A stretch of DNA of 58,758 nucleotides, counting the filler, from Sphacelaria rigidula (Eukaryota): the NCBI GenBank assembly GCA_964200075.2. It is 9 parts of 9 records of this genome, joined end to end, with 100 filler letters (N's around TTAATTAATTAA, not from the genome) between each part and the next. Parts side by side here need not be neighbours in the genome. Positions count along the whole stretch, not along the records: positions 26,162 to 32,601 come from CAXNAA020020050.1; 8 more parts are not named here. One strand, 5' to 3'. The notes beneath the pieces are model-generated. The model was not told the DNA's origin, ran no database searches, and worked only from the letters and a program-made list of their open reading frames with translations. Position 1 is the stretch's first letter. Every line of letters begins with the position of its first letter. The position numbers and the translations under genes were made by a program. Below are positions 6,284 to 54,549 of this stretch, one piece after another.

Positions 6284-6441
6284 GACTAATGCCGAGATAG
6301 CCCCCCCACATAAAGTGCGCCCGATTGGTCCGACGAACCGACTGCTATCCCAATATTGGGCTCGTTTGCAGCAATTTCGCTCACATGAGAGGCGTGTAGC
6401 AGTCCGAAATCAGCTATAACGCCCAAATGAGTCGCGTCGTG
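6284..6441 (-). mobile_element. MITE family A (GAC termini), partial, cut by contig end
   Basis: Starts with GACTAATGCCGAGATAGCCCCCCC and matches the reverse complement of the copies at 21392-21640 and 53698-53946. Confidence 0.85.
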
Positions 6442-6541
6442 NNNNNNNNNNNNNNNNNNNNNNNNNNNNNNNNNNNNNNNNNNNNTTAATTAATTAANNN
6501 NNNNNNNNNNNNNNNNNNNNNNNNNNNNNNNNNNNNNNNNN
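6442..6541. other. Artificial contig linker (44 N + TTAATTAATTAA + 44 N)
   Basis: Identical 100-bp spacer with stops in all six frames. It recurs at 12982-13081, 19522-19621, 26062-26161, 32602-32701, 39142-39241, 45681-45780 and 52220-52319, separating contigs of 6441-6439 bp. Confidence 0.98.
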
Positions 6542-12916: not shown

Positions 12917-13084
12917 TTAACAGCCGATCCTAATTTTTGGGGTTGAAACAAAATATGAGGTTGAAGTCCCATCCCTTCATANNNNNNNNNNNNNNNNNNN
13001 NNNNNNNNNNNNNNNNNNNNNNNNNTTAATTAATTAANNNNNNNNNNNNNNNNNNNNNNNNNNNNNNNNNNNNNNNNNNNNTTA

Positions 13085-18905: not shown

Positions 18906-19813
18906 AGCCCATTTTGGAACGTCTTCCTCTCGCATTCTCTCATGTCATTCGTGAGGTTACACCTTGGGTGCATGGGACGATAGGAAAGTTGTGTCTGGTT
19001 ATATGTCTGCCCGCTACATTTTTCGACAGTCAGAAAACACTACAACCTACCAACTCTACGACAGCAACAGTAAACAGGAGAGAGAGGAGAGGATAGAGAA
19101 GAGAGGATAGGAAAATCGTGTCCGGTGATACGTCTACTCGCCACTTACCGACAGTTCGTATACACTACAGTCTACTCTACAGTAAACAGGACCGTTGGGG
19201 TTGAAGCAAAGGTTATGGCGTATATAGCACAAGCAAAGGTCATGACATACTACGTAGTGTATTGTGGAGGTCGTGAGACTCCCGGCGACGGCAGGAACCG
19301 TCGAAGGTGGCCAATGATTTTCCTCGTGTTATGTAGTCAAGGATAGACCATAAGTCGTTGTGATGTGAAGGGGAGAAGGCACCTTGTGGGGGTTATTATA
19401 ATGGTGTTCACTCCGAGATTGTTCCAGGTTCAGACCTCTGCGTACGTTGTTTGGTAACTCAGCTCAGCAGCGCAGGAGACAACGAGCAAATAATACAGAC
19501 CAGAATAGCACACTTTTATCCNNNNNNNNNNNNNNNNNNNNNNNNNNNNNNNNNNNNNNNNNNNNTTAATTAATTAANNNNNNNNNNNNNNNNNNNNNNN
19601 NNNNNNNNNNNNNNNNNNNNNGTAGAGACCAAGGCAAGCCGGTAACTGATTGAGATGGGTCAACGCCCTGTGGCGAAGCCGGAACAATCCCAACTAATGA
19701 CAATAGCAAGCGCGATAACAACGCGTCACGGAACTCAGGATCTACGAGCAGACCCGCACAGCGTATATCTTGTAACGCCTGCGAGCTTCATCACATTTGA
19801 TGGGTTGGTGTCG

Positions 19814-19994
19814 CTGCTCACTGTGCTTTACGAGTACAGTGGTTATTTTTCATGGCGGCATGATTTAAACTTCGTCGTTGCTCACTGTGCTTCACGAGTA
19901 CAGTGATTATTTTCACGGAGGCATGATTTAAACTTCGTCACTGCTCACTGTGCTTCACGAGTACAGTATTTATTTCTCATGGTAGGATGATTTA
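19814..19994. repeat. Minisatellite, 63-64 bp unit, ~2.8 copies
   Basis: TGCTCACTGTGCTTYACGAGTACAGT...GCATGATTTAAACTTCGTC units start at 19814, 19878 and 19941. Confidence 0.92.
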
Positions 19995-21391: not shown

Positions 21392-21640
21392 AACTGCTGC
21401 CGAGATAGCCCCCCCCCGAACCGGCCAAAAAAGTGCACGAAGGCGATGATCATAAATGCCGTTTGAGCTGGTTTGGTGTTGCACGACGCGACTCATTTGG
21501 GCATTATGGCTGGTTTTGGATTGCTACAGGCCTCCCGCGTGGGCGAAATTGCTGCAAACGAGCCCAGTAATGAGATCGCAGCCGGTTTGTCCGCCGGTCT
21601 CCGGTGCACGTTTTGTGGGGGGGCTATCTCGGCATTAGTC
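21392..21640 (+). mobile_element. MITE family A, full length 249 bp, TSD CGTT
   Basis: ~24-bp TIRs (A)ACTGCTGCCGAGATAGCCCCCCC / GGGGGGGCTATCTCGGCATTAGTC, with CGTT at 21388-21391 and 21641-21644. Confidence 0.92.
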
Positions 21641-24634: not shown

Positions 24635-24635
<1 letters not shown>

Positions 24636-24672
24636 ATGGTCTGATGACTATGGCATGCATGATCATGAGTAC
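24635..24672 (+). mobile_element. GAGTAC-end element, severely 5'-truncated (type B), inside a C-tract
   Basis: GATGGTCTGATGACTATGGCATGCATGATCATGAGTAC flanked by poly-C on both sides. Confidence 0.8.
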
Positions 24673-25417
24673 CCCCCCCCCCCCTCCCCCACTTCATTTT
24701 TTTTCCGTACGGTTGTAGCCCCCGTTCTTCTAGTGGTTGCATATGGTATTTCGTATTTATGTTTGGCTTCGGACCTTCTATTTGTGTTTTGATTTCCTTT
24801 TCTTTTTGTTTTGCTTCTTTTTTTTTCGTATTTGTGATGTAATATATATATATATTCCTGGGGTCATGTATCGGTGTATTCCGTGACGACTGTTCCACAA
24901 ACATTCCTGATCCCGAGTCTGGAACATTTTGAACCTTCGTCGTCCGCGCCGTGCATTCACGACCAATCCGTATACTGGAACGGTCATCATGAGTCGTTCT
25001 TTTTCCTTCCTTCGTTATACGCACCTTTGTCGAGTTGGTTTATTTGGCTGTTTTTGTTTTTGTCATTGTTTTGGTCGAGAGTTTCCGGAGCGAGCGCTAG
25101 ACATACCTGACCCCGCCGTCTGAAATGTTTGCGCTCTTGTCCAATCGTTCCGCACACGACTACCACCTCCCTCTTGAGGATCGGTCGTCACGTGTCTTCT
25201 TTTTGTGTGTGTGTTCACGTCGTGTTTTGGCATCATGGGCGATAGCAACCAAGGTCGAGAGTTTGAAATGTTTTGACCTACTCGGCTAAAACACTTGACT
25301 CTACGTGCTTCGTATACGCGATCACCGCTTCCATTTACAGGGCCGGTCGACATGTGTTATTTTTTCTGCTTCATGTTTCTGATATCTTGTTTTCGCTGTT
25401 GCCAAGCGTACTCCTGG

Positions 25418-25456
<39 letters not shown>

Positions 25457-26161
25457 GTTTCGATTTTTGCATCTATGTCGGGAAACGCCATGAGTGTTCC
25501 AGCGTTCCTGAGCCTCGAGTCTCGGAACACTTGGCCTACTTTTTCTGCGAGTACGTCACACACGCGACCGTTCTCGTTTATATGAAGGGTCACGTGTGAT
25601 GCGACGCAACGGGTGGTTTATACTTTGGTGATTGATAAGTTACGACGAGATCACCGCTGGCCACGTCGTACGTAACGATGATGAGGAATTGTCCTTACAT
25701 TAGTGGAATGTTTGTTGCAAACGTCTCCTCATACAGGACCATTGCGTATCATGATAGGATAGATCGCTCTGGAACAGACCGTTCCGCCATGTCGATATTC
25801 GACCATTGGTACAGCCTACAGGCTCAGAGTCAGCCACTCGCTATTTTCTTTGTCACTGCTTACACCAGTTGTTTTGAGCACGGTTACCCGCCCATAAATC
25901 GGTCGGTGGTGTTTTGTTTTCATCAGGGATTATTGGACGAAGTAACGTGACGGTGCGACCGGCTGTGGTTTTTACCTCAGTTTGTGTTCGAGCCAGTCTC
26001 GTTTTAGTCCTGTGACGCTAGCAGGTCTGCTAGTACTGCAGCGTCTAAATGCTGTTGAGGGNNNNNNNNNNNNNNNNNNNNNNNNNNNNNNNNNNNNNNN
26101 NNNNNTTAATTAATTAANNNNNNNNNNNNNNNNNNNNNNNNNNNNNNNNNNNNNNNNNNNN

Positions 26162-26214
26162 AAAGGGATGCGTGGTCAATGGTCAAACGACTAAGGCAAG
26201 CAACAAATGAGTAC
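26162..26214 (+). mobile_element. GAGTAC-end element (type A), at contig start
   Basis: Identical to 39257-39309 over the overlap and followed by GCCCCCCC. Confidence 0.85.
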
Positions 26215-27249
26215 GCCCCCCCACACACACACACACCTTACCTGCTCTTCTCTCTTCTCTTTGTTTAGTCAGTTACCCTGTTAATTCGCTCCTTCTCTCG
26301 TAATCATGTTTACCCTCTCCCGGATCTGGTTCAGCGACTGTTTATGTGCTTTTTCGCCTTGGGTATGCTTACCGTATGGCCTCGGCTGACTTCGCAGCTG
26401 GTTACCCCATGTGTGACAATCAATCACTAAATATGCTGTACATGGATGTGTGCGTGCTGTATACCATGCCGTTTCTTTTCGTGGCCTGGTCATGCACCGA
26501 TCTGGTTGTGCCGCTTTCACGCGCATGGCCTGCTCGGGGGAAATATCGCAGCGTACACGTACCGTAGGCAATACGGTATGTTGCCATGAAGATATCTCAA
26601 ACGATGTTTTTGTCCTGTCCCTACTTTTCGACTGGAGCGTTGTTCGAGCGGGTGTTTCCGATTCCGGTTTTTCATTTGCAGTAGGTGCGTCAGGCTTGAG
26701 GTCACAGCTGTAGTTCGGGTTGATGTGAGACGCAATAATACAAGAAATTCCTCCCCCAGTCAAAGCAATTGCTCAATCAACGCTTGTTTCGCCAATGGCA
26801 TGCTCTCACCCTAACGTCACGTCTCCAAAAGATCGAGGACGTGTGCATCATACCTCAAACCGTGGCTTGACTCCATCGGCTTGTCCTCGCGAAGTCGGAC
26901 GATCGGTCGAAGTACAGTACTGTACTCTACACCAGGGTTTCCTCGGTTTCCAACGCATTCGCAGTACCGAGTACACAAGGACATCTAAGGCACCGCCTCC
27001 AGGGTCCCTGAAATACAGAGCCATAAAGCCATCCCACGATAGGGGGAGACGGGTGTATATCGGCCATTTTTTTGTCCCAATAAGGGCATTTTGATACGTT
27101 GCCTGATGTAGTAACTGGATAGAGACGAGTTGAATTAGATGATGCCGACGTCAATGGTCGGCGTCGTACTGTACCACCGTGCCCCGATGGCTCAATGAAC
27201 AATTTGACTCCCTATTAGGGTGGAAAGAAGGTCGGTTCCATTCTCGCCA

Positions 27250-27506
27250 AAGCGATGCTACGGTAGGGCTGCACAAATATTTTCTGAGGTTAGAATTGTT
27301 AGGAGCCCTTTATCTCATGTAAATCACGGCCCATGAAAATATGTGAAAGTACGCCAGGATTACTACTCCAATGTGCTGGGGATATCCCAAATGAGTATGT
27401 AAACGGGGATGCCCTGACCCATATTTTTTTGCATGTAGAATCGTTGGGAGCCCCTGAACTAGACATAATTTTACGGAAAAAGTGCACCCCTACCGTAGCA
27501 TTGCTC
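27250..27506 (+). mobile_element. MITE family B, full length ~257 bp
   Basis: TIRs ~GAGCAATGCTACGGTAGGGGTGCAC. Flanks GCCA/GACA form a 4-bp TSD with one mismatch. Homologous to 28157-28412 and 12134-12312. Confidence 0.9.
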
Positions 27507-28156
27507 GACAGATGCGTTTGAGGTTTCCCCTGCAAAGTACCTGATGCCCGTCCTTGATAGCGTGAGGACGTGAAAAGACCAAACGTATTCGACTGAGTTT
27601 GTTAGACGAGAGTCGGCGCGGAGCGGTTGTGCTGGTCATGATCCAACCCTTGAGACCACGGACACGTCCCGAGGAGGGGGGGGGAGGGGGGGGTTGAGAC
27701 GGTGACTGATATGTATATAATATTATATATACCTTATCCTTGAAAGCGAGTGCTTTCCCTCACGAAAATGCACGAAACAGGAAGGACCGCGTCGCTGTGC
27801 ATCGATGACTCGCATGAAGCCTAATGTTTCGGCCAACATGTGGATACGCACGCTTCCGTGAGATGACTCCGTAGCCACACCCTCACCTACCGGCGAATCG
27901 GCATCGAAATCCCGGACCCTCCCCCCAACTGCGTTTGGTTCGTTTAATGACCTGCTTTTACAGGTTTGGAGAGGTGTGGTGATTGACCCCGAACCAAGTC
28001 CAGAGCACGTTGAGCCCAGCACGGTCAGCATGACGTGGGGTGCAGAGTGTAGTGCGGAGGTGCGTGGCTGACCCACCGATCGTCTGCTGTAGGTCATGCA
28101 CGGTACTTTGAGGCCGAATGAAGATCTAGATATTACTCCGGTTCGCGTTGATGAAT

Positions 28157-28412
28157 GAGGGGTGCTACGGTAAGGGTGCACAAATATTTTCTGATATTTG
28201 ATTTTTTAGGAGCCCTTCATCTCAACCAAAACACGACTTATGAAATATGTGAGAGTATGCTAGGATTACTAGTCCAACGTGCTAGGGGTGTCCCAAATGA
28301 ATTCGCAAACGGGGGTGCCCTTAACCATGTTCTTCTGCATCTAGAATTTTCAGGAGCCCCTGACCCAGACAAGATTTCGCGCAAAAAGTGTATCCCTACC
28401 GTAGCATTGCCC
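28157..28412 (+). mobile_element. MITE family B, full length ~256 bp
   Basis: Same TIRs and body as 27250-27506, flanks GAAT/AAAT. Confidence 0.88.
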
Positions 28413-29472
28413 AAATGAAAATACAAGATGGAAAAAAGTGTGTCTTCCGGCCGCAGTTGTTGTAGTGCTGGAGTACAAGATGCTGGGTGCTTCGTACAAG
28501 TTTTTGTGTGCGTGATCCGTCTAGAAGTGTTACCATACATGTTGGCTTTGTTCGTTATACATCTGCTCTACCAGTAGAAGCATAGCGCCCGATCATTTTG
28601 CTGATTCTTCGCCTTCCGCAAACATTCCAGACTCTGTCTATTCAAGGAATAGTGCTACATGCTTTCCCCCCCTATCTTGTTGTAGTACGGACGTTCAAGT
28701 ATGTCGTGTTTTTGATATCTTTAGGAGGAACGCTATCGCTATCGCACTGAATCCACTATGTTCGGTTGTACTGTGTTGACCCCCACGTCCCGCCCCGCCA
28801 ATGCGCGTGAGCCTCCCTCGCGTTGAGTTGGTAGTCCCAAGGGGTTTTTCATTTCATTTCTCCCCACCATACGTTACCTACCTTTCAATCTGTCATCGGG
28901 TATTAGACCGCCCTTCCGTGGCTGGTGCACGTTTACCGAATCTTGATATACTAACCCTCGTTCTCACGTTATTTTGCGGCGAAACCAGAACAAAGAGTGA
29001 CTTCCGCCGGGATTGAAGCGCAAAATATTCGACGAAGATGGTTTTGATGCGCCAGGTTTCGATACTATCGCTTGACTACCGAAAATTATTCGTGTTCGGA
29101 TATGTTTACACGTTTCGGGCGATGTTTCATGCTGGGTGGGGAAGGTTTTCTCGGTCGGATTTTGTCTGCGAGAACCCGTCCAACCGACCCACAGGACGAC
29201 CTTCTTGTGTTTTGATGCCGCAGTTGAACATTCCCACAAACACCTATAACTTGCCGCACAGAGGGAGGATTGGAGCCAGCGGCGTCCTGCTACGGTAGGG
29301 GTGGGTCTCACATTTAGACCCAGACCTTTCTCATTCAGCGGCTCTTAAAAGTTAGGAGCTACAAAAGAATATGGGTGAGGACGGCATTTCCGTTTTTAAA
29401 ATCCATTCCGAATATCCCTAGCCTATTGAAATGCTATTGGAGGCGCGCTCTCACATATGTCATATATCGGCG

Positions 29473-29908
29473 TATACGCGGCCATTTGGCTACCCCCCAC
29501 AAGTGCTCCGTCTCGAAAGGGATGCGTGGTCAGTGGTCAAATGACGAAGGCGAGCAACAAATGAGTACGCCCCCCCCCCCACAATGCCCCCGGAGAGATC
29601 CGCGGCCCTCCCGGGACAAAACAAGCCTCCGGAGGCCTTGAATCCCTCTGGAGGAAACCAAACAGTACCAACCTGGAGGGCCGCACACCCCTCCGGAGGA
29701 ATTTGGGGGTAGAGAAATTCGTTCGGAGAGATGCGCGACCCTCCAGGGGCTAAAACAAGCCTCCGGGGGCCTTCAATGCCTCTGGAGGAAACCAAACACT
29801 ACCAACCTGGAGGGCCGCGCACCGCTCCGGCGGCGTTTAATTCCTCTGAATGCTCGAAAAGTTGACCGACCTGAAGGGATTTGGAAAGGAATCAAATGGC
29901 CGCGTGTG
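29473..29908. mobile_element. Non-autonomous TIR element with CACACGCGGCCATTTG-type ends and internal CCTCYRGAGG repeats
   Basis: TATACGCGGCCATTTG / CAAATGGCCGCGTGTG ends and an internal ~133-bp duplication (29592, 29725). It carries a nested GAGTAC-end element. A relative lies at 39478-39865. Confidence 0.75.
29503..29569 (+). mobile_element. GAGTAC-end element (type A), 5'-truncated, TSD CCCCCCACAA
   Basis: CCCCCCACAA at 29493-29502 and 29575-29584. An empty-site paralog TGGCTACCCCCCACAAT is at 39481-39497. Confidence 0.9.
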
Positions 29909-32900
29909 TGTATTGAAAATTGTTAGGGGCCCTCTCTTTCATCCATACTGTCACCTGTGCTCACGTATCTCGGCTGTCGATGGACTGAGCCTGGCGGCAC
30001 AGCCGCCGAAACCCTTGTTCTGTATTTGTGTGTTGTAGTTCAAACTCTATTGTTGTCTCTATTGGTTTAATAGGCGTTGCTGCGTTGTGCTCAAGGAAAG
30101 CTGGTGATGACTCGTGTATAGATTGAATGCGAGTGTGTACATTTATAATTCGAATGCTATGCACCCTCACCTTCTTTACCTTGCCCACAGACGTTTCTGT
30201 GGAAGCAAACGACCAGGCTGCGGGACGGCACCACGGTGGTTCTCAAGACTATCCCTTGCGAAGCAGGAGAGGCCGACGATGTCTGCCTGGTGGAGGTGAT
30301 GGGAGTGCCAAAGAGAACTTGATTTTCTCACAATGTGGAGGAGTGCACACCGATCATCTAAACGGATTACACCTAGTAGAAGCGCGTGGTAGAGAGTATA
30401 TTTTTTAGTGTTGACACGGTGTGTTTGTTACATACGAAAATTCATTTTCACGTTGGTGTCGTCCGGAGGGGTGGGGGGAAAGGGGGTCGCGGTTCACCGA
30501 AGACACGATCCGTGTCTGGTGAGGAGGAAGAGTTATGGTATAATAGTAGTTTCTTTTTTTTTGCTCTGTACTTTCCTTTTATTTTCCTTTTTTTCTTATT
30601 CTAGGTCGGCCATTTTTTTCTGTGCTTTGCTTGTGTTGACTTTTTCATTACCCTTTTTCTTTGTCACGACTTAGTCTGCTATGTCGTTCTGTTCGACCCC
30701 CCCTTTTTTTCTGCTCCTTCTTTTTCTCAGAGCGTGTTTCAGTTTCGTTTTTGTTGGGTACATCTACCATGAGACCACGGCTGGACCCCTGGGGGGTCAA
30801 TTAAAGTGCGACTATCAATCAATCAATCAAGTAGTGATATAAAACTCCACCGTTTCGTGCTACAGCGGGACGAGATACCACACACACGAAACGCGCCATA
30901 TCGAGCCACTTGAAAGCAAATTCTACAGAACGACTCCGACCTCGATAAAAATGACGCCTCGACTTCTTGGGCGCCAAGTTCCGCGAGATCGTACCACCCC
31001 AGGCAGAGTACTGAAGAATACAGGGGAACAACTGCCGTTTTTTTACAACACGCATACGGGTCAGCAGCAGCTAGGCACCACGGAGTATGTTCGACAGTGC
31101 TCCAACCTGTTGCGTGCCTAAGTGAAGCCTGGGAAACGACACATATGTGTCAAGAGGTGGTTGCGATAACTTAACCCAGTTGGCGTCGCGGTGATGGTAG
31201 TAATTACCGGCAAAACGCCTTCTCTTGTTGTTTCATTTTGTGTGATGGTCGCCCGTTTTGTCGTGTGATTGAAACCTGAGCATTTACACCAAATATATAT
31301 GTGTATATTTCTTTTTCTTCAAGCGGTTTGTTTTTTGTTATGTTTCTACTCCCGAGCGCGCCATGTACATGTTTCTATGTAGAATATCCTATAATGTACA
31401 TCCAACGACAGATGTCACTCGACCTGACCGGCAGAGGAGACTGACCCTCCTCAAGACACGGCGCACCTCGAGACAGAAGATCATTGTTGGTACCCTGTTC
31501 GCCTAGCCATTTTGTGCTAAAGACTTTGAGCAGTCATGTCGTAGTCACGGGGTCAGTATGTGGCTCATCTAAAACAATCTGAAGCCAGCAAGCCTCACGC
31601 ATCGTGGATGATGGCTCTGTCCCGCGTATACCCATACTGTGGTTAATGACATTCTCGCGTTGCGTGGCCCTAGTACGCGTGCGCAACATCTGAGCAGTGG
31701 GCGCCGCGTCAGATATTTTGCTTGCTGTTTTTGGTTAGACGTAAGATCCAGGAAGGCGTTCACCTCAGTTTTGGGGTATTTTCAACACCGTTGTACTCGT
31801 GTTCCAGGGTCATGAGCCCTTACAACAGCGTGATTGATGTCTCAATAGAGCCCTATGAAGAGACCGCTGCGACCACTGCGGGTCTGGCCGAAAACATTGT
31901 TGAAAAAGAACATGTCCCGCCAATATTCGACTTTGCTATCGCGTGCTTGCGTTGTGAACAGAGGCCTGAAATATTTTAGAGTTCTGTGTGCTCGTGTCTC
32001 CTTCCCGAATGTTACGTGCGTGATATATCGGTGCATCGTCTACAAAAACCGCCAACAGATGTCTCGTGATCCTCCCGACAAGGACGGTCTCCCTCAAGAG
32101 ATTGTATCCACTGCCTCAAGCTTCATTGACAACTCGGGTGTCAACCGCAGGCTCCGGGGAATGGATGACTCTATCGCGCCTGCGGCGGTTGACCGCAGGC
32201 TGCAGGAGGATGAAAAGGTAGATCGTGACATGGCGTCCAAAACGGAACTTTTGCATTCTTGTTTCACAAGAAAAAAGTGGATGGTTTCTGTCGGAGGGGG
32301 CGAGCGTGGGGGATAGCTGTTGGAGTTGTGACAATTGAAATCGATCACAGCTTGATTGTGAGTTGTTGTGCCTCAAGGTTTTCAGTGGGTGACACCCATG
32401 GTAAAAGAGAAGTCCACCCGACAAATCCATTTGTTTTATTTTGCTGTTTCTCGGCAGTATACCCTTCCCTGTGTTTTGACCCGAATGCTTCGCATTGCTA
32501 TCGTTTTATGTTTGTTCTTATCCTCCCCCCCCCCCCTCCCCACCCCTCTCCCCCCCCCCTCTCCCCTCCCCCCACCTACCTTGCTACTCTCCCCCCCCGC
32601 CNNNNNNNNNNNNNNNNNNNNNNNNNNNNNNNNNNNNNNNNNNNNTTAATTAATTAANNNNNNNNNNNNNNNNNNNNNNNNNNNNNNNNNNNNNNNNNNN
32701 NCGCAACCGCCACCCACACCCTACACCCTCTTTTCTTCCCGCCGCGCGGGGTCGGGGGGGGGTTGGGGGTGGGGGCGGGGGGGGGGGGGGGGGGGGGGGG
32801 GGAATCACGCACACGCCGACTGAACTTTATCCTAGTGCTGAGTCAGCACCCCCAGCCAACGTTTTGCCTTGATTTGTGGACAGGCAATCCGTCGCCGCGC

Positions 32901-33268
32901 CCTGGAGGTTCAACGGTACAACTTCACTTGCACCACTGGGTCAGAAGAATGCGGGTTCCATTCCGGAAGATTATCCTTTTTTTTTCTGCAAAGTACAAGT
33001 ATGTGATTTGTGATTCCTGTCATTGTAAACGGGAGAACGGGAGCAACAAATAACATCATATTTCACAACAGTCGACGCGATGCGGAGGTACTCACTCAAT
33101 CCATGATATTAATATTGCAAGGCGTGTACCGGGGCAGAGATAGATTAATCACTTGAGACGACGGACTCGCCTCAAGAAATGGGGGGAACTTGAAAGCATG
33201 CCATAAACATAAGCAGACAAAAAAACTACAACGAAATTACGGCGTGGCGCGGTGAATTCCGCACTCAC

Positions 33269-33472
33269 ATTCGTCCGTCCGGCAATTCCTCTTGGATCGC
33301 AGGCAAGGCCCCCGCTTCCAACAGCTCCTTAATCACGGCGGGATGGTTTTGCATGGCCGCGCGCGAAAGTGGTGGGATATTTGTCGCCTGATGGTTGACG
33401 TCAGCACCGTACTTGATCAGCTCACGCAACACCTCGAGATGCCCTTTTCCCGCCGCCCATCCGAGCGCCGTC
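33269..33472 (-). CDS. Ankyrin-repeat protein, internal exon (third of three seen)
   Basis: 'TALGWAAGKGHLEVLRELIKYGADVN...PPLSRAAMQNHPAVIKELLEAGA'. TGTAG acceptor and GTGAGT donor. Phase joins the upstream exon as KGER|TAL. Confidence 0.88.
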
Positions 33473-35225
33473 CTACAGACGTACGTACGCGAGGAAGTTC
33501 GCGAGACGGAAGACGGCAAGCTTTTCCATAATTGTTTTGTGATCTCCCTCTCCAATAAGCCTCTTCCTTGGAATTCTGGGTATCTTTCACGAGTAATTTG
33601 GCTGCTCGTTCTACGAAATGTCACGGTTCCAAAAACAAAATGGGGTTTTTCCAAAGAATTCATATACAAACACTTTTTGTCGTGGGACAGTTTTCCCGAC
33701 ATAACATTGTGTTGGAAATTGACTTCTCTCCGACGATGGAAAGTTCCCCAAGGGATCGATCAGAACACGACATCATATCTCACATTGTTTCAAAACCGTT
33801 TTGGGGATTATCAGTAATCTCATCGTGAATGATCCAGTACACGCACGCCGCCTGAGAATTCAATACCGCCGCTCGCGTGTTAGTGTTAACGTGGAAATCC
33901 CGTCATAACGAAAATGGCTTTGGAAACAGGTCCCTCGAAGGGAACTGCGCGGGAAAATATGCCCAAGATTTCTCGAACTATTGATTTCTCAAACGCAAAA
34001 AAGCGACCGTAGGGTAGAGTACTATACCCAGGTACCCTGCTGGTGCTTCAGGGTATTTGCAGCAGCCAGTACCGCCGGGTACCCGGGATATCCACTGCCG
34101 AAAGATACGGCGTATTTCAGGGTACCTTACTTTAACCATGGACACCTCAATACTCCTGCATTCGTCCCCCAACCTACCTCAAATCATCTCAGGTAACGCT
34201 GCATAGAGCTAATTGTAAAATTTTGGAAGCGCTTCAATCAAGGGTGATGATGCCAACCAGCTCCTGCCTAGAGCAGCTCCTGGTGCCTTACTACGAAACC
34301 CACTGCTGAAGATACGTGTCGCACCACAATATTACACACGATGTGTGCCTTTCCTTTCATCGGACATGTTTGCCATCTACATTCTACATATGTATACGTG
34401 TGTGCGTACAACTTACGAGGCGACTACGCCGAATGAGCCCGAGCCCCTCAAGACTTGAGAAAGGTACTCGAGGAGCAGTGTGTTTCAAAAATAAGTTTCT
34501 TGCAACTCGTGTAGCCTACGCTCAATAACGTGGTGTGCTCGTGAGATCACGGGAGAAGGGCAACAGCACCTAAAGGTAGCATATATGTGCGAGGGTAGAT
34601 ACAACAGCACCTAGGGGTGCACATGAGGGTATATGCGGTGGAAAAGCATCGTAGATCATGTCACGGTGACTATCTTGGCCGCTTCCGACTGCAAGTGGTC
34701 ATGATCTTCACCTGTACCTTTCTCTAGGCCATGCACATCATAGTGGATCATTCTCAACTCTTCTTGCCCCCAGGCGGTACCGTTCACAACATCTCGTGTC
34801 TACATTCCCAGCACAGCCTGCTTGTTCGGTTCACTTCACTGCTGGCAGCGTCAGCCTTTGCGACCACCCATGATAGTGTCTGGGGACATTTTGTCAACAT
34901 TGTGCACACGTGCAGGGTGCGAAGGTTGAGGAGAAAGTCGCTGTTCAGGCTTCCAAAACTAGGGGTTGGACCATTCCAACCAGAGATCCCGGCAACAATC
35001 TCACGGCCGTTTCCCCTGCATTGTCCGTTTCGCTCACAAATGTCACGTCAACGACGCTCGGGGCTCCGCGAGAAGTAATGGAGCATTTCTCGAGGCCCCA
35101 TCATCATTTAAGATATTCTTTGCTTTTTTTCCCGCCATACCTTCAACCCCTGTCATACCTTCAACCCCTGTCCTTCCTCGGGACGAGTATATCCGTAGTA
35201 GCCAGAAGGGATCAACCCATCTCTC

Positions 35226-36009
35226 CGACAAAGGCAAGCAACAAATGAGTACGCACACCCCCCTCCCTCAACCCCCTGATACTGTGCCATACTAGGATAT
35301 AGATCATGACCATTGACGGCGAATCACGAAGGGGATAAGAAAAGTACGAGAATTTTTGTATGGAAGACGCGTGATGAGCGCCCAAATGTTGGAGGTGTCT
35401 CTATTAGGAGTAGGAACGGTGCTCCGTCTCAAGAAGGATACGTCGTCAACGGTCAGACAACAAAGGCAAGCAGCACATGAGTACCCCCCCCTCCCCTGGT
35501 ACTGTACCTCCCCTGTGGATTGGGGTCGGTTGGCAACAACGCTGTAAAATACGCCACTCACCGTGTAAGCCAGGCAACCAGGTTGCCGGGGTTTTTTGCG
35601 CTTGCGATAACCATGATGGCGGTCGAGCTAGATCATATTGTGCGGGGTTGGAGAACCTCAATTCCGCTCAAAAAGGATGATCATACTGCGTAGTCTTTAA
35701 ATGGTGAGACACCCATGAGGCAGTGTGAAAGCCGTGACTATCTCTGTAAGTGATGATACGACGGAATGAAGCAACACATTGAAGGCTGCCATCCATATGC
35801 AAGATAAGATAATCAGTACGCGTCGGGCGGAACAGGACAATCGTGGCAGGATGCAGCTCACCCGTCATGCGACTCGCCGAACACATCACAGCACATCGCG
35901 CTTGGTGATTGCGAGCCTGTTCCAGCGAAAATCCGGCGTGCTCCGTCCCGGTTTGTAAGGGATGCGAGGTCAATGGTCAGGTGACTACGGCATGCAATAT
36001 CATGAGTAC
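35226..36009 (+). mobile_element. Stack of three GAGTAC-end elements (A truncated, A ~190 bp, B ~490 bp) in an ankyrin-gene intron
   Basis: GAGTAC ends at 35247-35252, 35479-35484 and 36004-36009, each followed by a C-rich run and TGRTACTGTRC. Confidence 0.85.
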
Positions 36010-36274
36010 GCCCCCGCACCTTCGATGGTACTGTACATGGCTGATATTTCGGTATCATAGATTGACTGAATCAGACCTCCCTACACCGAGTCGACTCTCG
36101 GCGAGGGTATTTTGCAAGTCATATCCTCACGTCTTGAGCAGGTGATTGTAATTATCGGGGGAAAACGACTGTCCTAAACCTTCCGCCCAAGTCGGCGAGA
36201 GATGTAATTATTTAATTTAGACTACCGGGTGGCAGAGGCGTTATGTAAAAGTGAAAAGAGCATGGGTACTGCAC

Positions 36275-38829: not shown

Positions 38830-39141
38830 GTACTCATGATATTGCATGCCATAGTCATAAGACTGTTGACCTCGCATCCCTACAAACCCGGGACGGAGCA
38901 CAGCGGGTTTTCGTCGGACCAGGCTCGCAATCGATCGCCAAGCGCGAAGCGCCGTGACGTATTCGGCGAGCCGCATGAAGGGTGTGCTTCATTCTGCTAA
39001 GATTGTTCGGCCCGAAGCGTACTGATTATCTTGCATTCGGATGACAGCCACCAATGCGTTGCTTTATTTTCTGGCATCGCCACTTCCAGAGACAGCTAGC
39101 ACGGAACGGGGGGGGGTGTACTCATGATCATGCATGCCATC
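38830..39141 (-). mobile_element. Two tandem GAGTAC-end elements (type B), second cut by contig end
   Basis: GTACTC at 38830 and 39118, each preceded by GCACGG..G-run. Body matches the reverse complement of 35735-36009 and 45395-45663. Confidence 0.85.
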
Positions 39142-39241
39142 NNNNNNNNNNNNNNNNNNNNNNNNNNNNNNNNNNNNNNNNNNNNTTAATTAATTAANNN
39201 NNNNNNNNNNNNNNNNNNNNNNNNNNNNNNNNNNNNNNNNN

Positions 39242-39309
39242 CGGTGCTCCGTCTCGAAAGGGATGCGTGGTCAATGGTCAAACGACTAAGGCAAGCAACA
39301 AATGAGTAC
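39242..39309 (+). mobile_element. GAGTAC-end element (type A), at contig start
   Basis: CGGTGCTCCGTCTCGAAAGGGATGCGTGGTCAATGGTCAAACGACTAAGGCAAGCAACAAATGAGTAC followed by GCCCCC. Confidence 0.88.
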
Positions 39310-39477
39310 GCCCCCTGTGCTTGCCGTGCATTTTGGTCTCCGGGGTTGGCTTATGGCTATCAACACTCTTGCATCGTGTGGACACTCGTCAAACGAATTC
39401 AGACAACCACTTTTGTTCACTCACGTACTCACGTTTTCGACGTTAAAAATCAGATACAACTCGAACAATTATCCATG

Positions 39478-39865
39478 CATTGGCTACCCCCCACAATCCC
39501 TCCACACGAAAATCTACCGCTCCAGAGGGAAAAAACCTCTTGAGTTGTTCAATCCATCTGGAGGGTGGATGATAACTCCCTCCACACAGTTCAAACACTG
39601 CTAGAGGAATAATAGCCCACACAAAGTTACTCTAGAGGTAGTGGGGAGATGGAGCCCTCCTAGAGGGTTTATGTGCACTTTGAAGGATCCAACACAATAT
39701 GAAATCCCTCTAGAGGTCACTGCTCCTCTAGCGGTGTTTAACCCCTGTGGAGCGGTCAATTTTGACCCCTCCACAAGAATTAAACACCTCCACGGACAAA
39801 ATTCACCCCTCCAGAGGGGTCAATATGTGGAGGGATTTTTGGGGATAGTCAAATGGCCGCGTGTG
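39478..39865. mobile_element. Non-autonomous TIR element related to 29473-29908
   Basis: Right end GGGGATAGTCAAATGGCCGCGTGTG, left remnant CATTGGCTACCCCCCA, and many CCTCYAGAGG motifs inside. Confidence 0.7.
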
Positions 39866-42324: not shown

Positions 42325-43482
42325 AGGATCGATCTCAAAAGTGAGGTTCAAGTGACATATCTTTTTTTCACGGATGACGCGAAACAGTAACACAGCGCGA
42401 AGCTATATTCCCCCCCAAAACTCTGCAACTGTGAATGAGTTGTGGCTAGGCGCACCGAACGAATGCGGTGTACACGTGTGTCGATGACGATACCACCAGA
42501 GAGAGAAGCAACGACAGAGAGGAAGCTCCTCACCCATGTCCTTTGTGTGTCCTCGCTCGGCGACTACCAATCGCTCGAGAGACTGGCATCATGCATGTTA
42601 CCAGCATCTACCGAATTTCTCATAATATGCCGTTATTATATTGCTGCGCACAACCCCCCAAAGAACATCGAGCTGCGGAAAGATTTCGTCTCTTCTTGTC
42701 TCTGGAGCTCACCAATGCAAAAATCGATTTCTCTCTGCCTCTCTTTTTGGACAGGACGCGCCTCTGTGCGCTGAAAAATATGTCGTTGAAAAACAGGGCA
42801 ATGTTCCCGTCACCGCTACTGTTCCCTGCCACACACATGCCAGCAAGGACGGCGCGCTGCGGCAAAATTAACAGATCCAATTTGAACTTGGGGGGTGTTA
42901 TTCATCGTTGATTTTACCCGACATGACATATGTGACCATCCAGGTGCCCGACCACAAGAGCCTGCCAGAGGCCAGTTGGGGGGGGGGGGGCTGAGAGATC
43001 AAACACTTGTGGAGACTTTCTTGACATGCCGAATGAAAAAAGTGCACCGGAGACCGTCCGACAAAGCGGCTGCGACCCCACTATTGAGCTCGTTTGCAGA
43101 AATTCCGCACACATGAGAGGCGTGTAGCAGTCCAAAACCAGCTATAACGCCCAAATGATTCGCGTCGTGCAGCATAATACCAGCTCTCACGGCATTTATG
43201 ATCATCACCTCCGTGCACCTTTTTTGGCCGGTTCGGGGGGGGGGGCTATCTCGGCAGCAGTCGATGGTGACCTAACTGTTGCTAGCGTGGTGCAGAGGGG
43301 TGCGTCAATGATGCAATCTAGAGCTTTCGTTGCTCTACTCTACTGACTCCCGTCTACAGAGAATCTGCAGAGAGGTCACACACGGTAACAACATGTTACG
43401 TACCGAATTTTGGAACAGCTATATAGAAACAAAACAATTCGATTTTCTAAACTACGTCCACATCATTGAAATGACTCTTGTC
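42325..43482 (-). repeat. Interspersed repeat R1 with nested MITE A
   Basis: Reverse complement of 9925-10850, interrupted at ~43035-43262. Confidence 0.9.
43035..43262 (-). mobile_element. MITE family A, one TIR lost
   Basis: Ends GGGGGCTATCTCGGCAGCAGTC and the body matches 21392-21640. Absent from the R1 copy at ~10140. Confidence 0.88.
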
Positions 43483-45021
43483 ACATGAGGAAAAATGACC
43501 GCTTTGGGTCCGTCCGAACGTTCGGAGATACTGTCGAACAGCACCACCAAACTTTCTGGCATTGACATCCGCTAATCAGTACAGAACCGAACAGAAATCG
43601 ACACTTTAACGTTCTTATTAGAAAACAACAGGCATAAAACGGTTGGTAGGTAGGAAAACGGGATTTTCGTACAGGAGAAACTCTGTGTTCCCCCGTGGGT
43701 GTTACATGTACTCGCAATAACTCTGTCGTTGTTCTTTCATACCTGGCGGGGGAACGGGGAAGCCAACAAGTTCTTCATCTGCCTCGCCCCTTGAAGAAGG
43801 TGCGATTTGCGGTTGAATCACTTGAACTGCATCTCAAGGAGGACTCCGCATACATCTGATACTCAGATCCTCAAGAGGTATAGTTTGACCGCAAAAAACA
43901 ACACTCTAGTCCTCCCTATTTCAGCCCACACGTAGGTACAGCAAATTGGAGCTGTCCGTGCTAGGCCCAAACTACTCAAATATTAATCTCCACGCAAAGG
44001 CAAGGGGCCCACACTTCACGCCGAGCATGTACACCAACTTTCGCGAAAAACGAACAGGGTTTCACGGCCGAGAAGCGCCGCGAGAATCAAGCGCCTTGCA
44101 AAGTATCCTATTTTGTCCGACAATGGGGGTAGGTGTACCCAGCAAACACTACTACTGTAATTTTGTTTTCTTGTACCCTAATTCTGTCTTTTGCTATCTC
44201 ATGTTATGTCCAGAGTATACGAGCTGGTTCATGCTTTTCACCCAAAAGACACTCATCGGCAAAACCTCACGCCGTTTTAAGCAGTTAAACCCTGAAATTT
44301 TTCACACATGTTCTGTGGGTCATTACGCAGCTTTCGAAGATCGATTTTTTTCACCGCTTTTTGGGGGTCCCAGTTTGGGGGGGGGAACTTCGATGCAGTC
44401 GGGCCCCCGTAAAACGGTAAACAAATTAAGTAAAAAACCTCGTTCATCCAAAGTTGCGAAATGACTCAGCATAGTTGTTGAAAAAAATCAGGGTCTAACT
44501 CTTCAAAACGGCGTGAGGGTTCTCGCGTTTGTGCAATGAACTTTGCCGTGCCACGGTGAAGCCGCAAACTGCTTGATTTTAGTACGAAAATGGCGTTTTC
44601 GGGACTGCTCTGACGTGAACATATTCGACCCCGTTGTAACCGTTTTCAAATCTGTTTTTCCCGTCAGATTCTCGAGCTGATGGCGGTTACAACGATTTAA
44701 AGCATGTGATTCGATGAAAATTGAGCTTCGAATTTTTTCTTCAATTTCAGAACAATTTGAAGGGCGCTGATTGGTCGAAGTACCAATTCGCCCTTGGCGC
44801 TACCAGCATGCCGCTGAACACAAATCCGGCTTTGTCACGCTCTTCAGCTGTTGATGGTGGTCAGTATGATATCATCATATGTGACTATTGGGCAGGTATT
44901 CCGCAAGACATTTGCTGATGACACAATTCTGGGCTGAAACAGGGGGGACTAGACCCACTTTTGTGGTTTGCCCCCCCAAAAGGTCCCGCACACCAACGTA
45001 CCCCTCCTCCCCATTCCCCCC

Positions 45022-45663
45022 CTCCGCCTCGAAAGGGATGCGTGGCCAATGGTTGAACGACTAAGGCATGTACCGAATGAGTACCCCCCCTCCCCCCCCC
45101 CCTGGTCCGGCAAGAACCCGGCGCGCTCCGTCCTGGCTTTGTAGGGGCGGATCCCCGATGGTGTTGGCGTCGCGTGGCGATGACGCTGTGGAACACGCCA
45201 CTCACTGCGTAAGCTAGGCAACCAGGTCACCGATGTTTTTTTGCGCCTGCGTTGTTTTTGCAGTATCCACGGTGGTGGTCGAGCTAGATCATGTTGTGCG
45301 GCGTGGGAGAACCTCATTTCCGCATAGTGAGGATGATCGTACTACGTACTGTAGTGTGTAAATGGTGAGACACCCATGAGGCATTGTGTTAGCCGTGGCT
45401 GTCTCTGGAAATGGCGATACCAGAAAATGAGGCTTCTATTTGTAGACTGACATCTAAATGCAAGATAATCCGTAGGCTTTGGGCCGGACAATCTCAGCAG
45501 GATGCAGCTCACCCTTCATGCGACTCGCCGAACACACCACGGCGCTTCGCTTTTGGTGATTGATTGCGAGCCTGGTCCGGCGGAAACTCGGCGTGCTCCG
45601 TCCCGGCTTAGTAGGGATGCGAGGTCAATGGTCATATGAATATGGCATGCGTAATGATGAGTA
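45022..45663 (+). mobile_element. Stack of GAGTAC-end elements (A truncated, then B ~560 bp) in a C-tract
   Basis: GAGTAC at 45079-45084 followed by a C-run. The B body matches 35525-36009 and ends GAGTA at 45659-45663. Confidence 0.85.
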
Positions 45664-46502
45664 AAACGCGATGGCCCGGGNNNNNNNNNNNNNNNNNNNN
45701 NNNNNNNNNNNNNNNNNNNNNNNNTTAATTAATTAANNNNNNNNNNNNNNNNNNNNNNNNNNNNNNNNNNNNNNNNNNNNTTGTAGATCCGTCTTGATGT
45801 ACACGTACAACACGTGCCTCCCGAAATGTCAGTGGGCATCGAACGAGGCAAACGCGCTAGTGCCACCCCCGGTAGTGCAATCGTACTTGAGCTATTTCCA
45901 CTGCAAACGGAACTGCGTGACGTAGTGGGCGCCCACCCAGACGACTTACACAACCGAGATCAAGGAGTACTCTACGCCAAAAGAGAGAGTCTCGGACGCG
46001 TCGCGGGGAACGCCAACGACTGCGTCGACGGCATGTGCATGTAGTACTGCGCGTGTACATGTCGTGGTCTGTTCGCATTATGATGCTTCGTCACTAATGG
46101 GGGTGGTGGGTGAATTTAAGAATGTGTTCGGTTTTAGATTGGCGGGTCTGCTCAAAAGTAGTATGGAACTGGTTCAATGGTACAGGCAGGTATACGCCGG
46201 CCGGAAATGAACTATATTTCTGGTACATTCATTCACGCAAAGCGTATATCCACCTATATAGCTGGATCCTTATTTCCACTGAGACCTTTTATCATGACCG
46301 ATCCCGCGTTGTTTTTTTCTAATTCGGGAGCCCACATTTTTTTAATCAGCTGCCCATTACGGATGTTTTCAAACAAAGTGGGTTCGGGTTACGAGCAAAA
46401 CCAGAGCCAAGTTTTTGAATTTGAGAGCGCCACCTCTACAAACCCGCTCAGCGGGCAGGTGAACAGCACGCACATAGTTCACATGAACACAGCTACACGC
46501 AT

Positions 46503-50662: not shown

Positions 50663-52319
50663 GAAAACATCCGTGACGGGTAGCTGATTAAAAAAATGTG
50701 GGTCCCCATAGGTGGATAAACTTTTTGCGCATTTATTCAAGTCTGGGAGTGGTCGGTGTTGAGGTGATTTTGTTCCTCCAGAAAGCTCGCTCCACATCAG
50801 TAGATGGACAATCTTGTTGCACTAGCGAGTGTCCTCCCTTTGTCTGTACCAGTCGGGAAGCACACGCTCCGAGCGGCCACCCCACGTTTACCGTCATTGC
50901 GAAAATAATAAGACAAGAGCACGAACAGCAACTGTTGTGGCCGCTACACACCAACGTAACTACAGTGACTTACGAGTGATAGCCATCGTGCTGGACAGCG
51001 CTGACACACACACGAATCGGCACCGGCTGATTTAGACCTACCCCCAGCCGCGTACATCTACTGGCAGTAAAGATGCTGCTGATACTGCTGCTGTTGCTTC
51101 TCCTCCTGCTCGTGCGGAACGCGATTAGAACGGCGCGTAATTTCTCGTGATGCTGCAGAACATCTGTGTTGTTTTCTGTTGAGTGTGGTCCTCCGCCGCA
51201 TCTCTCAACGTGCAGATCTGGGTTGCAAGTTTTTGCAGTCGAATACACCGTCACGAGCGACCAGAAAACACGGCATAATTGCCTTGTCTGGTGTTGAGAG
51301 TAGTACTCTGCAGTTCATACACCACTGCAGAGTTGTCTGGTTCTGAGTGTACCACCCTGTAGTCAAGATAATAGGGTCATCTTTTGAGCAGGTTCTGCTG
51401 GTTTTTTTAGAGGTTCTGCTGGGGTTTTTCCAAGTATTCCGAAAAAAACTAGAGTGTTTTCTGTCACAGAAATCTACAGCAGAATCTGGAATAGCCTGAG
51501 ACAACAACCAATTTAAAAATTGGAATTGGAACGAGCCAGCACCTCCCTGCGGCTTGACTGATTTCCCTCCTCCGTCATGATTTCGTGTTGACACAATGCA
51601 AAAACCGGCGGAGATTTCGTTGCGTCTCCACCAACATCATTGTATGGTCAAAAGACGAGAAAAAAAGTAGCTACGATCGATACCCAAGAAAAGGAACGGC
51701 GAAAACAAAAAAAAGATTGAGTGTGGCATGGTGAAAATGCAATAGTTGTTTACGCACAAACATCTGATTTCCTGTCTTCGACCAAGGAATCACAGCACCT
51801 AGGAAACCAACCGCTCCCCGAGACGTTTTGTCTACGGCTGCAACTCCCGGTATGGCAGTGGGACTGGCTGGCACGAGGGTACTAAGGGTAAAGGACTGGA
51901 GGCACCTACAAAGAGCGAGCGTTGGGGCTCAAGAAGTGAAACCTAACATTACCCTTTGTGATTATTCTTCATACCTCCTTGCCTTAACGACAGATGCAAG
52001 AAAAATAGTTCATAGATACTGTGTACATGTACATGTATAATTTCACATGTTTCACCACTTTTGCCGAGTCTTCTCTGGCGGCAAGAAATCGTTTCCCGCG
52101 CTTTCTTTTGCAGCGCACCAAGAAGGCTTAGGGGTACATTACCGTTCAGGTTTGGGTGTCATATGATACCTGCGGCGCGTGTTCTGGCAACCGAAGGTCG
52201 CTCAAACCGGCCCTTTTTCNNNNNNNNNNNNNNNNNNNNNNNNNNNNNNNNNNNNNNNNNNNNTTAATTAATTAANNNNNNNNNNNNNNNNNNNNNNNNN
52301 NNNNNNNNNNNNNNNNNNN

Positions 52320-52760: not shown

Positions 52761-53697
52761 TACCCAGAGTTGCTTAACCCTTGGACCGCGGTGCCCGTAG
52801 TCCATCTGGACCACGAGGGTACTTTTTCCAAGTACATTTTGATGCCGATTCAGCAGGTGACCTACTTTCGCGGTCTGACGGTCAAGTCCTTCTGCGGAAG
52901 TCGGGGGGGAAGATACTTTCGCTCTGTGTTACTCTTTCGTATCTTCCCTGCAAAAGAGAAACGCGACTTCATCCCCATTCTAGTGTTGAACCCCAAAATT
53001 TAAAATCGGCTGTTCATAGCTGCTAGCAAGTGAAGTTATGGAACTATGTTTCCAAGATTTGGTGTGGATCCAAACATTTTCTGGGTTTTCATCCCCACTA
53101 AAAAATCCATACCCAATATGTAAAATCCCGTGTTGCAAGTATTTACAGGTTCCCAATGTGATGGGCGGTGCAAAGGGAACTAACCGAAGAAAATCACCAA
53201 CCACGAAGAAATAATCAGACACTCAATTGATCGGCCTGTTATTCAAGACGCCGCAGCAACCCTCAACATTTGTTTCCCTCGGGAAATTGCCATGAGAAGT
53301 GGTCGAAGAAAAACGAGTGATTGATTCGGTTCAACAGAAAGGCACGATAAATATTTCTGTCTGAACGTGATTCTTGTTCACCACAAGAGGCGATCTTATC
53401 CTGTATCGACCTGCAAAAAACACAACTTGGCGAGCGATACAAGAATATTTGGCCTGAAAAGAATGTATGAGCCGCAGTCACTGCTTTTTTTTCGCCAGAA
53501 TTGCCCTAATTCCGCCAATTCTCCATGCCGTCGGCACGCAAGATCTACACTAGATTCACAGACGGTCATCTTTAGCCGATCTTGAGGGCTTGAGGGTTTC
53601 GTTGTGATCTTAAATGCAACTCGTTTATTTCACTCCAAGACAACTCGGGTCCAAGTGCGAGAAGTCGCACCCGAGCTCGAAGAAAGATGGCGTGAGG

Positions 53698-54440: not shown

Positions 54441-54537
54441 GTGCTCACGATCTTGCACTCCGTAGTCAAGAGATCGTTGACCTCGCATTCCTACAAAGCC
54501 GGGACGGAGCACTTCGGGTTTTCGCCGGACCAGCTCG
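54441..54537 (-). mobile_element. GAGTAC-end element (type B), 5'-truncated, GAGCAC variant
   Basis: Reverse complement of the B 3' module, adjoining a G-run at 54437-54441. Confidence 0.8.
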
Positions 54538-54549
54538 AAACAGTAGTGA

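Follow-up and report, generated by a model that had tools for sequence, protein, structure and literature searches.

What brought a 66-nt sequence ending in GAGTAC into a MITE-like element at position 29503, beside a run of C, and what relation does it bear to the other sequences with the same 3' end in this DNA from the brown alga Sphacelaria rigidula? The window, by which we mean the whole stretch analysed, is 58,758 bases long. It comprises nine pieces of ~6.44 kb with 100-nt linkers (N44 TTAATTAATTAA N44) between them, at 6442, 12982, 19522, 26062, 32602, 39142, 45681 and 52220. GC content is ~49%. A Pfam search of 42 frames of at least 135 aa and 150 of the 288 frames of 70-134 aa gave a single match in the window, an ankyrin repeat at 33268-33759, and the whole window gave no Rfam match at gathering thresholds. 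Behaviour across the genome was assessed from the contigs of four public runs (X1, X3, X4 and X5), compared with piece 5 at 90% likeness or better. The features are collected in Table 1.

Table 1. The insert at 29503 with its host element, and the other copies of the shared 3' end in the window, assigned to subfamilies A and B. L070 and L121 are the copies of the parent LINE described in the text.
Positions	Strand	Feature	Remarks
29479..29905	.	Host MITE-like element, inverted ends CGCGGCCATTTGGCTACCCCCC ... CAAATGGCCGCG	Carries the insert; paralog at 39478-39862
29493..29502	+	Upstream TSD CCCCCCACAA	Within the end of the host MITE-like element; once in the paralog, at 39487
29503..29568	+	A copy, last 66 nt of the LINE (GTGCTCC...AAATGAGTAC)	96% identical to L121 and L070
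29569..29574	+	Tail: G and ~5 C unaccounted for by the target	C-run of 11, compared with 6 in the empty paralog
29575..29584	+	Downstream TSD CCCCCCACAA	From sequence comparison
24635..24672	+	B copy, 38 nt	Between C33 (24602-24634) and C12TC5 (24673-24690)
26162..26222	+	A copy cut by piece start	Ends GAGTAC G C7, then (AC)n
35227..35267	+	Short or diverged A copy, 3' end 35252	Tail GCACACCCCCCTCCC
35286..35484	+	A copy, 199 nt	~80% identical to the LINE; flanks CCCCCTGATACTGT (35272) and CCCCTGGTACTGT (35493)
35508..36025	+	B copy, apparently full length, ~502 nt to GAGTAC at 36009	Tail GCCCCCGCACCTTCGA
38830..39098	-	B copy, 5'-truncated, ~266 nt	From flank comparison and blastn
39118..39141	-	B copy cut by piece end	Head to tail with the 38830..39098 copy, whose 5' end its A + C9 tail adjoins
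39242..39315	+	A copy cut by piece start	98.6% identical to L070 and L121; tail G C5
45022..45102	+	A copy, 63 nt, 3' end 45084	Then C6TC11; upstream flank C-rich
45103..45146	+	Internal B fragment, 44 nt	Between the A-copy tail and the next B copy
45151..45663	+	B copy, apparently full length	Ends GAGTA, C-run absent; flank cut by piece end at 45680
54441..54540	-	B copy, 5'-truncated, ~100 nt	Ends GAGCAC, then C4

The coding content of the insert at 29503 is the final 19 residues of a LINE protein with its TGA stop, and tblastn matches it to residues 1235-1253 of the frame P0001 described below. The earlier note on this DNA had reported that it is flanked on both sides by one sequence that stands single at an empty site, and that 11 C are found here as against 6 C there. 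Both observations are borne out; CCCCCCACAA is found twice here and once at 39487, and the counts of C are the same on recounting. The diverged paralog of the host has GGCTACCCCCCACAAT once and lacks the insert. The empty site is that of a paralog, and not an orthologous allele. As the tail is C-rich, the length of the target-site duplication (TSD) at 29503 is ambiguous, from 4 bp (ACAA) to 10 bp. In all four runs, contigs that start from the unique left flank reach 18-27 nt into the insert. That is below the threshold of 31 nt, and gives only a hint that the insert is present in all four. Among the matches listed for the contigs of X1, X3, X4 and X5 there was no empty allele at 29503.

All 12 of the copies of one 3' end that had been claimed for the window are present at their positions. 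Six belong to subfamily A, which ends ...GGCAAGCAACAAATGAGTAC (3' ends at 26214, 29568, 35252, 35484, 39309 and 45084), and six to subfamily B, which ends ...GGCATGCAATATCATGAGTAC (24672, 36009 and 45663, with 38830, 39118 and 54441 on the minus strand). The 20-mer GGCGAGCAACAAATGAGTAC from the 3' end has 5 matches in the window at up to 3 mismatches, where 0.01 are expected, and the remaining 3' ends were recovered by blastn. The 3' end is followed by G, by A or by neither, and then by a C-run where a poly(A) tail would stand. Four or more C begin within one base of the 3' end in 10/12 copies (binomial P ~1e-18, against a background of 1216 in 115928 positions, or 0.0105). Eleven ends with a C-run had been counted earlier, and the eleventh is that at 35252, where C6 follows GCACA, five bases on. 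Copy 45663 has no C-run after its 3' end; the flank there is cut after 17 nt by the end of the piece. The flanks inspected around the 12 ends contain no poly(A), TIR or LTR ends, in agreement with the earlier claim. An L1-type LINE was considered and rejected, since it should have a poly(A) tail and an A-run follows the 3' end in 0/12 copies in the window.

Variable 5' truncation, which had also been proposed, is confirmed, with a caveat for three copies. The 5' starts do differ, giving copies of 38, 63, 199 and 266 nt. The copies at 26162, 39242 and 39141 end at piece borders, so these are short by cutting and not by 5' truncation. The two full-length B copies, 35508-36009 and 45151-45663, are 76% identical over 510 nt. 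Two further candidates were rejected. A repeat ending GCCGAGATAG was examined as a second (C)n-tailed family, but its homology continues past the C-run and its ends form inverted pairs, so it is a MITE instead. The true 3' end might have been the GCACCT that follows the C-run in L070 and in the B copy at 36009, but L121 lacks it.

The contigs of the four runs extend these observations. Loose contig ends behind 26219-26222, i.e. after GAGTACG and C4-C7, share a consensus of 16-25 C, beyond which their sequences differ. There are 135+164+178+832 such records in X1, with similar numbers in X3 and X4, and the 16-25 C consensus is found in X1, X3, X4 and X5. A long C-run thus normally follows the 3' end. 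Further loose ends lie before 29503 (134, 126, 106 and 35 records in the four runs), and their consensus equals the LINE's own 30 nt just upstream of the module, as found in L070. Many other copies thus extend further in the 5' direction than the one at 29503, which is truncated. Summed contig depth, which is no copy number, is ~2.2 million and 0.9 million in X1 for the two bins that hold the module, compared with 25-60 for unique bins, and shows that the module is a very abundant repeat.

The earlier note had advised extending copies in the 5' direction to find a reverse transcriptase and endonuclease ORF with this 3' end. The module proved to be the end of just such a frame at two loci, L070 and L121. 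A metagenome scan with a 16-nt motif gave at least 119 loci, among which blastn identified one true copy, L070, the others being chance matches. Its module is 98.6% identical to 39242-39315, and ends a 1253-aa frame (P0001) that is open on its 5' side at the contig edge. By Pfam, the frame contains Exo_endo_phos at residues 64-285 (E 3e-11) and RVT_1 at residues 634-883 (E 8e-33). The TGA stop lies within AAATGAGTAC, 4 nt before the 3' end, and G and C8 come next. Loci L120 and L121 come from a 22-mer scan of genome contigs (contig of 5259 bp). Over 3031 nt L121 and L070 are 95.9% identical; L121 has a stop-free frame of 1382 aa and ends GAGTAC G C13. Both L070 and L121 have a single ORF in which an N-terminal APE-type endonuclease is followed by the reverse transcriptase. 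The first 1300 nt of L121 yielded no TSD word as long as 8 nt, and the 5' end of L121 may lie beyond the contig. The 22-mer scan gave 0 matches in viral contigs, and in G001 no copy was found besides that in C43. The nearest named relatives of the LINE protein are unnamed products of Ectocarpus sp., with 55-71% identity; unnamed relatives are closer than those of Ectocarpus, at 88% and 73%.

The A copies in the window map by tblastn to residues 1188-1253 of the LINE protein, and no reverse transcriptase was detected in the window beyond these last 66 residues. For the copy 35286-35484, ~200 nt align with the LINE at 80% identity. The homology of B to the LINE is confined to the last ~72 nt, at 79%, and the head of B (region 35380-36060) has no match in Rfam at E values up to 10. 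These are therefore a LINE and a passenger, probably non-coding, that borrows its 3' end. The only reading frame of at least 110 codons recorded wholly inside a B copy is 44952-45341. From the sequence comparison B is a putative non-coding passenger with the LINE's 3' end, where "non-coding" refers to its having no similarity to the LINE frame. Other identities for the repeat were considered and set aside. A strict SINE would have a head derived from tRNA, 5S, 7SL or snRNA and carrying a pol III promoter; ARAGORN found no tRNA in the window, and 35380-36060 has no Rfam match. A hammerhead or other known ribozyme was likewise rejected, within the reach of the models, with no Rfam match in the window at gathering thresholds or in 35380-36060 at E≤10.

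Two very different origins have to be weighed against a LINE and its passenger. The repeats might have arisen at the DNA level. They could then be a satellite or a segmental duplication, or else belong to the end of a DNA transposon, for instance a Helitron. C-runs are indeed also found inside the inverted ends of MITE families in the window, and some copies are clustered. Yet the copies have a common 3' end with differing 5' ends and flanks and with short duplications, and the sequence is the end of an intact frame encoding a reverse transcriptase. We regard a DNA-level origin as very improbable.

The second is that they are non-autonomous Penelope-like elements of the Chlamys clade. From the part of the source available, Chlamys elements have an insertion bias for (CA)n and (C)n, form pseudo-LTRs from partial tandems, cluster in tandem or inverted arrangement, and have non-autonomous families with common 3' ends (PMC8557442). 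The repeats of the window resemble them in their C-run sites, in clustered copies that stand head to tail, in having non-autonomous relatives with a common 3' end, and in one (AC)n flank. However, Chlamys elements combine a GIY-YIG endonuclease with a PLE-type reverse transcriptase, whereas in the parent frame of the window's LINE an APE-type endonuclease lies N-terminal to the reverse transcriptase and Pfam finds no GIY-YIG. In addition, the row for Chlamys-1 of Ectocarpus, in the portion of the table at hand, notes an (A)n 3' end (PMC12477816). The APE-type endonuclease in the parent frame excludes identity with Chlamys elements, and we give that origin scarcely any credence.

We therefore conclude, with a probability of about 0.85, that the repeats stem from a LINE with one ORF and an APE-type endonuclease, which belongs to the RTE-X kind known from brown algae and is represented here by 5'-truncated copies (A), together with a ~500-bp non-coding passenger that has the same ~70-nt 3' end (B). 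The RTE-X label comes from the architecture, the type of tail, the partner element and the Ectocarpus relatives, and is well supported but not proven. The earlier proposal had been a retroposon resembling a LINE 3' end or SINE, inserted by target-primed reverse transcription, with a C-rich tail and landing at C-runs. It is upheld by the LINE parent, the tails of 16-25 C and the C-led TSDs.

The common 3' module may be preserved for its RNA structure. Its start, GUGCUC, can pair with its end, GAGUAC, and in copy 54441 a G-U pair has become G-C by a change from U to C. The predicted fold has three helices, comprising this terminal stem, a hairpin GUCYC/GGGAU and a longer arm. It is the minimum-energy structure in 5/8 copies, and all three loops differ between A and B. 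Single-copy folds are no better than shuffles in 5/7 cases. The fold therefore has modest support, which comes from comparison between copies. In the protein, the core of the module specifies the C-terminal [CR][VE]VNG, a motif that related LINE proteins with as little as ~35-40% identity, those of Ectocarpus included, also have near their ends. The non-coding B keeps the same core nucleotides, which suggests that the constraint on the core acts on the RNA. The module would then be the part recognised by the reverse transcriptase.

Are the C-runs a target, or only a tail? At 29503 the insert sits exactly at a C6 that is also present in the empty paralog. C-runs contain or adjoin the insertions at 24635, 35286 and 39098 (minus strand). 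Where a TSD can be resolved, it begins with the C-run or abuts it, and C-run-led flanks are found at 35272/35493 and at 39116/38829. For the latter pair, the flanks of the B copy 38830..39098, C9GTTCCGTGC (39116-39099) and C4GC5TCCCGTGC (38829-38812), agree at 15/18 positions. The short A copy 35227..35267 has TCAACCCC(C)TG upstream (35143, 35161) and downstream (35268). The B copy 35508..36025 is flanked by TGGTACTGTAC at 35497 and 36026, a sequence with no other occurrence in the window. The three insertions that end at 35252, 35484 and 36009 have in common overlapping duplications of one original site, TCAACCCCCTGATACTGTAC.

On the alternative reading, the C-run is no more than a tail that the element carries or acquires. 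Integration would not be aimed at C-runs, and the C-rich TSDs and the clusters would result from older tails and from the ambiguity between tail and TSD. The TSD of the B copy at 36009 does lack a C-run of its own, with 16 nt (GCCCCCGCACCTTCGA) between GAGTAC and the duplication, that at 29493 is possibly just ACAA, tails elsewhere in the genome have 16-25 C, much more than the C6 at the target, and the resolvable sites are few. Nevertheless TGGTACTGTAC stands directly after a C-run, the empty paralog carries its C6 at the very position of the insert, and the head of B follows the tail of an A copy or LINE within 0-60 nt at three independent loci (35484 to 35508, 45084 to 45151, and in L121). 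The curators of the Ectocarpus table also recorded "C-rich" TSDs, in the rows seen (PMC12477816). We consider a tail without targeting to be unlikely. Support for C-runs as preferred targets comes from only a few sites, about five that can be resolved and a single paralogous site that is empty.

The copies may also be arranged in arrays. In the contigs, joints that connect 26214-26222 (the module end and C-run) to 29503-29505 occur in at least 102 contigs of X1, at least 76 of X3, at least 48 of X4 and at least 9 of X5. A joint that goes back 76 nt, from 29579 to 29504, occurs in 9 contigs of X1 and 7 of X3. In our reading the joints mark modules set head to tail, whose 5' end falls repeatedly at GTGCTCC. 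Their sides are short, 19-35 nt (51 nt in X1 for the joint that goes back 76), and derive from repeats, and such joints need caution.

It is conceivable that the 66-nt module is in addition a discrete minimal unit that builds head-to-tail arrays, with its 5' end fixed at GTGCTCC because it is a processed or separate RNA, or a preferred point of template jumping. Both kinds of joint would fit this, the copy at 29503 begins at the same base, and the pairing of GUGCUC with the 3' GAGUAC closes the predicted fold. Yet the evidence from the joints is tempered by their short, repeat-derived sides, such arrays are absent from the window, and the other copies of the window start elsewhere (38, 63, 199 and 266 nt). 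On balance we hold the discrete unit to be possible, and rather doubtful. In the stronger form of the idea, the last 66 nt would suffice as a minimal retroposon. Their RNA, closed into three helices, always beginning at GUGCUCC and ending in oligo(C), would be recopied onto earlier C-tails by template jumping or serial insertion. This is a speculative suggestion, and probably not correct. If true, the family would make its own landing sites and 72-80-bp arrays, and would be a main source of long poly(C)/poly(G) tracts in the genome.

For the LINE and its passenger, the observations can be accommodated by a simple scheme of insertion. The endonuclease of the LINE would nick the G-rich strand at a C-run, and the oligo(G) 3' end so exposed could pair with the RNA where it ends in oligo(C). 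From there the RNA would be copied by the reverse transcriptase, placed on the structured 3' module with its terminal stem GUGCUC/GAGUAC and two arms, by analogy with L1. A nick of the second strand 4-18 nt away would give the duplication. Each insertion would renew or add a C-run and draw the next copy alongside. Later copies would thus come to lie beside earlier ones, and head-to-tail clusters would result.

L1 has a poly(A) tail, and its T-rich primer is generated at TTTT/AA. The tail pairs with the nicked strand, the TSD begins with the base of the tail, and copies are 5'-truncated. The proposed logic is similar here, in that a homopolymer tail would pair with the complementary strand of a nicked target. 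Unlike L1, the tail of the window's LINE is C, and there is a conserved, structured 3' module that is common to the passenger. The latter suggests stringent 3' recognition, which is usual in the RTE group. LINEs specific for microsatellites were reportedly described by Kojima and Fujiwara in 2004, among them Kibi and Koshi of the Tx1 clade and Waldo of the R1 clade. These are also said to be non-LTR elements with tails matching the repeat at the insertion site. They belong to other clades and use di- to tetranucleotide repeats, by this account, whereas the target here is mononucleotide C.

A literature search combining poly C, non-LTR and target-primed reverse transcription found no paper, although the parentheses of "poly(C)" may have hidden some. 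The closest counterparts come from the brown alga Ectocarpus. In the available rows of supplementary file 1 of PMC12477816, RTEX-1_Ec32 is described as "single EN-RT ORF; (C)n 3'" with "C-rich" TSD, and RTEX-2_Ec32 as having "(C)n termini/TSD". The same study lists RTEX-N1_Ec32, a non-autonomous element of 604-607 bp with "60 bp 3' end 83% RTEX-1/2" that "can be present in tandem", and, in supplementary file 1, the non-autonomous RTEX-N2 of 188 bp. The part of its main text at hand gives RTEX-N1 as the most abundant family in the Ectocarpus genome (PMC12477816), and is silent on the C-tail, with 0 occurrences each of "C-rich" and "insertion preference".

Judged from these descriptions in the table, the LINE of the window is like RTEX-1_Ec32 and RTEX-2_Ec32 in its single endonuclease-reverse transcriptase frame, (C)n 3' end, C-rich TSDs, high copy number and brown-alga host lineage. 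The (C)n end and C-rich TSD are seen here at 10/12 ends, and as C8 in L070 and C13 in L121. It differs in being another family, the best Ectocarpus protein match having only 55% identity over 76% of the query. Matched in the same way, B is like RTEX-N1 and RTEX-N2, being ~500 bp and apparently non-coding, with LINE homology only in its last ~72 nt (79%), a head-to-tail arrangement and C-rich flanks; it is ~100 bp shorter than RTEX-N1. Architecture, tail, TSDs and partner element all match the Ectocarpus entries, as far as these are available, and so the elements are of the same kind. The earlier note had not recognised a described family. In this respect it must be corrected; an RTE-X element with "(C)n 3'", "C-rich" TSDs and a non-autonomous partner is already in the Ectocarpus table. 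This is therefore not a new kind of element, and is a member of a kind catalogued in Ectocarpus. LINEs with oligo(C) tails are rare, and in the sources at hand were found recorded only as curators' notes in that one supplementary table (PMC12477816).

The window provides a worked example of this kind of element. It offers a parent LINE, a passenger with a structured 3' module, a filled site with its paralogous empty site, nested insertions at one C-run, and contig evidence for long C-tails and head-to-tail units. It should be useful in annotating the genomes of brown algae; copies sit at the ends of pieces, so that C-runs and clusters appear to break short-read assemblies. Elements of this kind might further allow a natural test of the extent to which the pairing of tail and primer sets the choice of target by a LINE.

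The MITE-like element that hosts the insert at 29503 is present twice in the window, the second time without the insert, and contains internal palindromes of the CCTCYGGAGG type. By the depth of contigs from four runs aligned to piece 5, the element at 29479-29905 is also repeated. The joint of 29499 to 29617 probably derives from other copies of this element. Within piece 5, 27237-27881, 28097-28526 and 30462-30891 have a summed contig depth thousands-fold above that of unique bins in four of four runs, and are additional abundant repeats.

C-runs occur in two further families. Those of C7 to C11 in a second MITE-like family are transposon-end sequence and not retroposon tails. In a dispersed repeat with an internal C7 the copies stay homologous beyond the run.

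At 45103-45146, 44 nt from the interior of subfamily B, the non-coding passenger (B positions about 426-471), separate the C-tail of a subfamily A (LINE 3' end) copy from the 5' end of an apparently full-length B copy. This fragment may have originated by template switching in reverse transcription. In the public contig L121 the LINE frame is preceded, at a distance of ~600 nt, by a module-like sequence, inverted and diverged, and a B-like 5' head (74% identity to B 21-63) starts immediately past the LINE's C13 tail.

A 164-codon frame encoding an ankyrin repeat (E 2e-10) gave the sole Pfam match among the frames scanned and is probably a host-gene exon. There is also a 63-bp tandem repeat.

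The window comprises nine pieces of ~6.44 kb with a linker N44-TTAATTAATTAA-N44 between each. Several piece ends are occupied by retroposon copies or C/G-rich tracts, a placement that fits contig breakage at these sequences.

Coordinates of repeats, linkers and other features (window positions, except L121)
Feature	Position	Details
MITE-like element	29479-29905 and 39478-39862	inverted ends CGCGGCCATTTGGCTACCCCCC ... CAAATGGCCGCG
Second MITE-like family, ~250 bp	21392-21640 and 53697-53946	inverted ends GACTRMTGCCGAGATAG then C7-C11
Second MITE-like family, single ends	6284-6307 and 43239-43262	
Dispersed repeat, internal C7	42308-42436; 10736-10864 (-); 52903-52977 (-)	…GTAACACAGNGCGAA…TT CCCCCCC…
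L121 (reverse complement), beside LINE	about 470-535; 5165-5259	module-like; B-like head
Ankyrin-repeat frame	33268-33759 (-)	
Tandem repeat	19810-19994	2.9 copies, 88% matches
Linkers	6442-6541, 12982-13081, 19522-19621, 26062-26161, 32602-32701, 39142-39241, 45681-45780, 52220-52319	
Retroposon copies or C/G-rich tracts at piece ends	26162, 39141, 39242, 45663-45680, 32522-32598, 32748-32802, 58746
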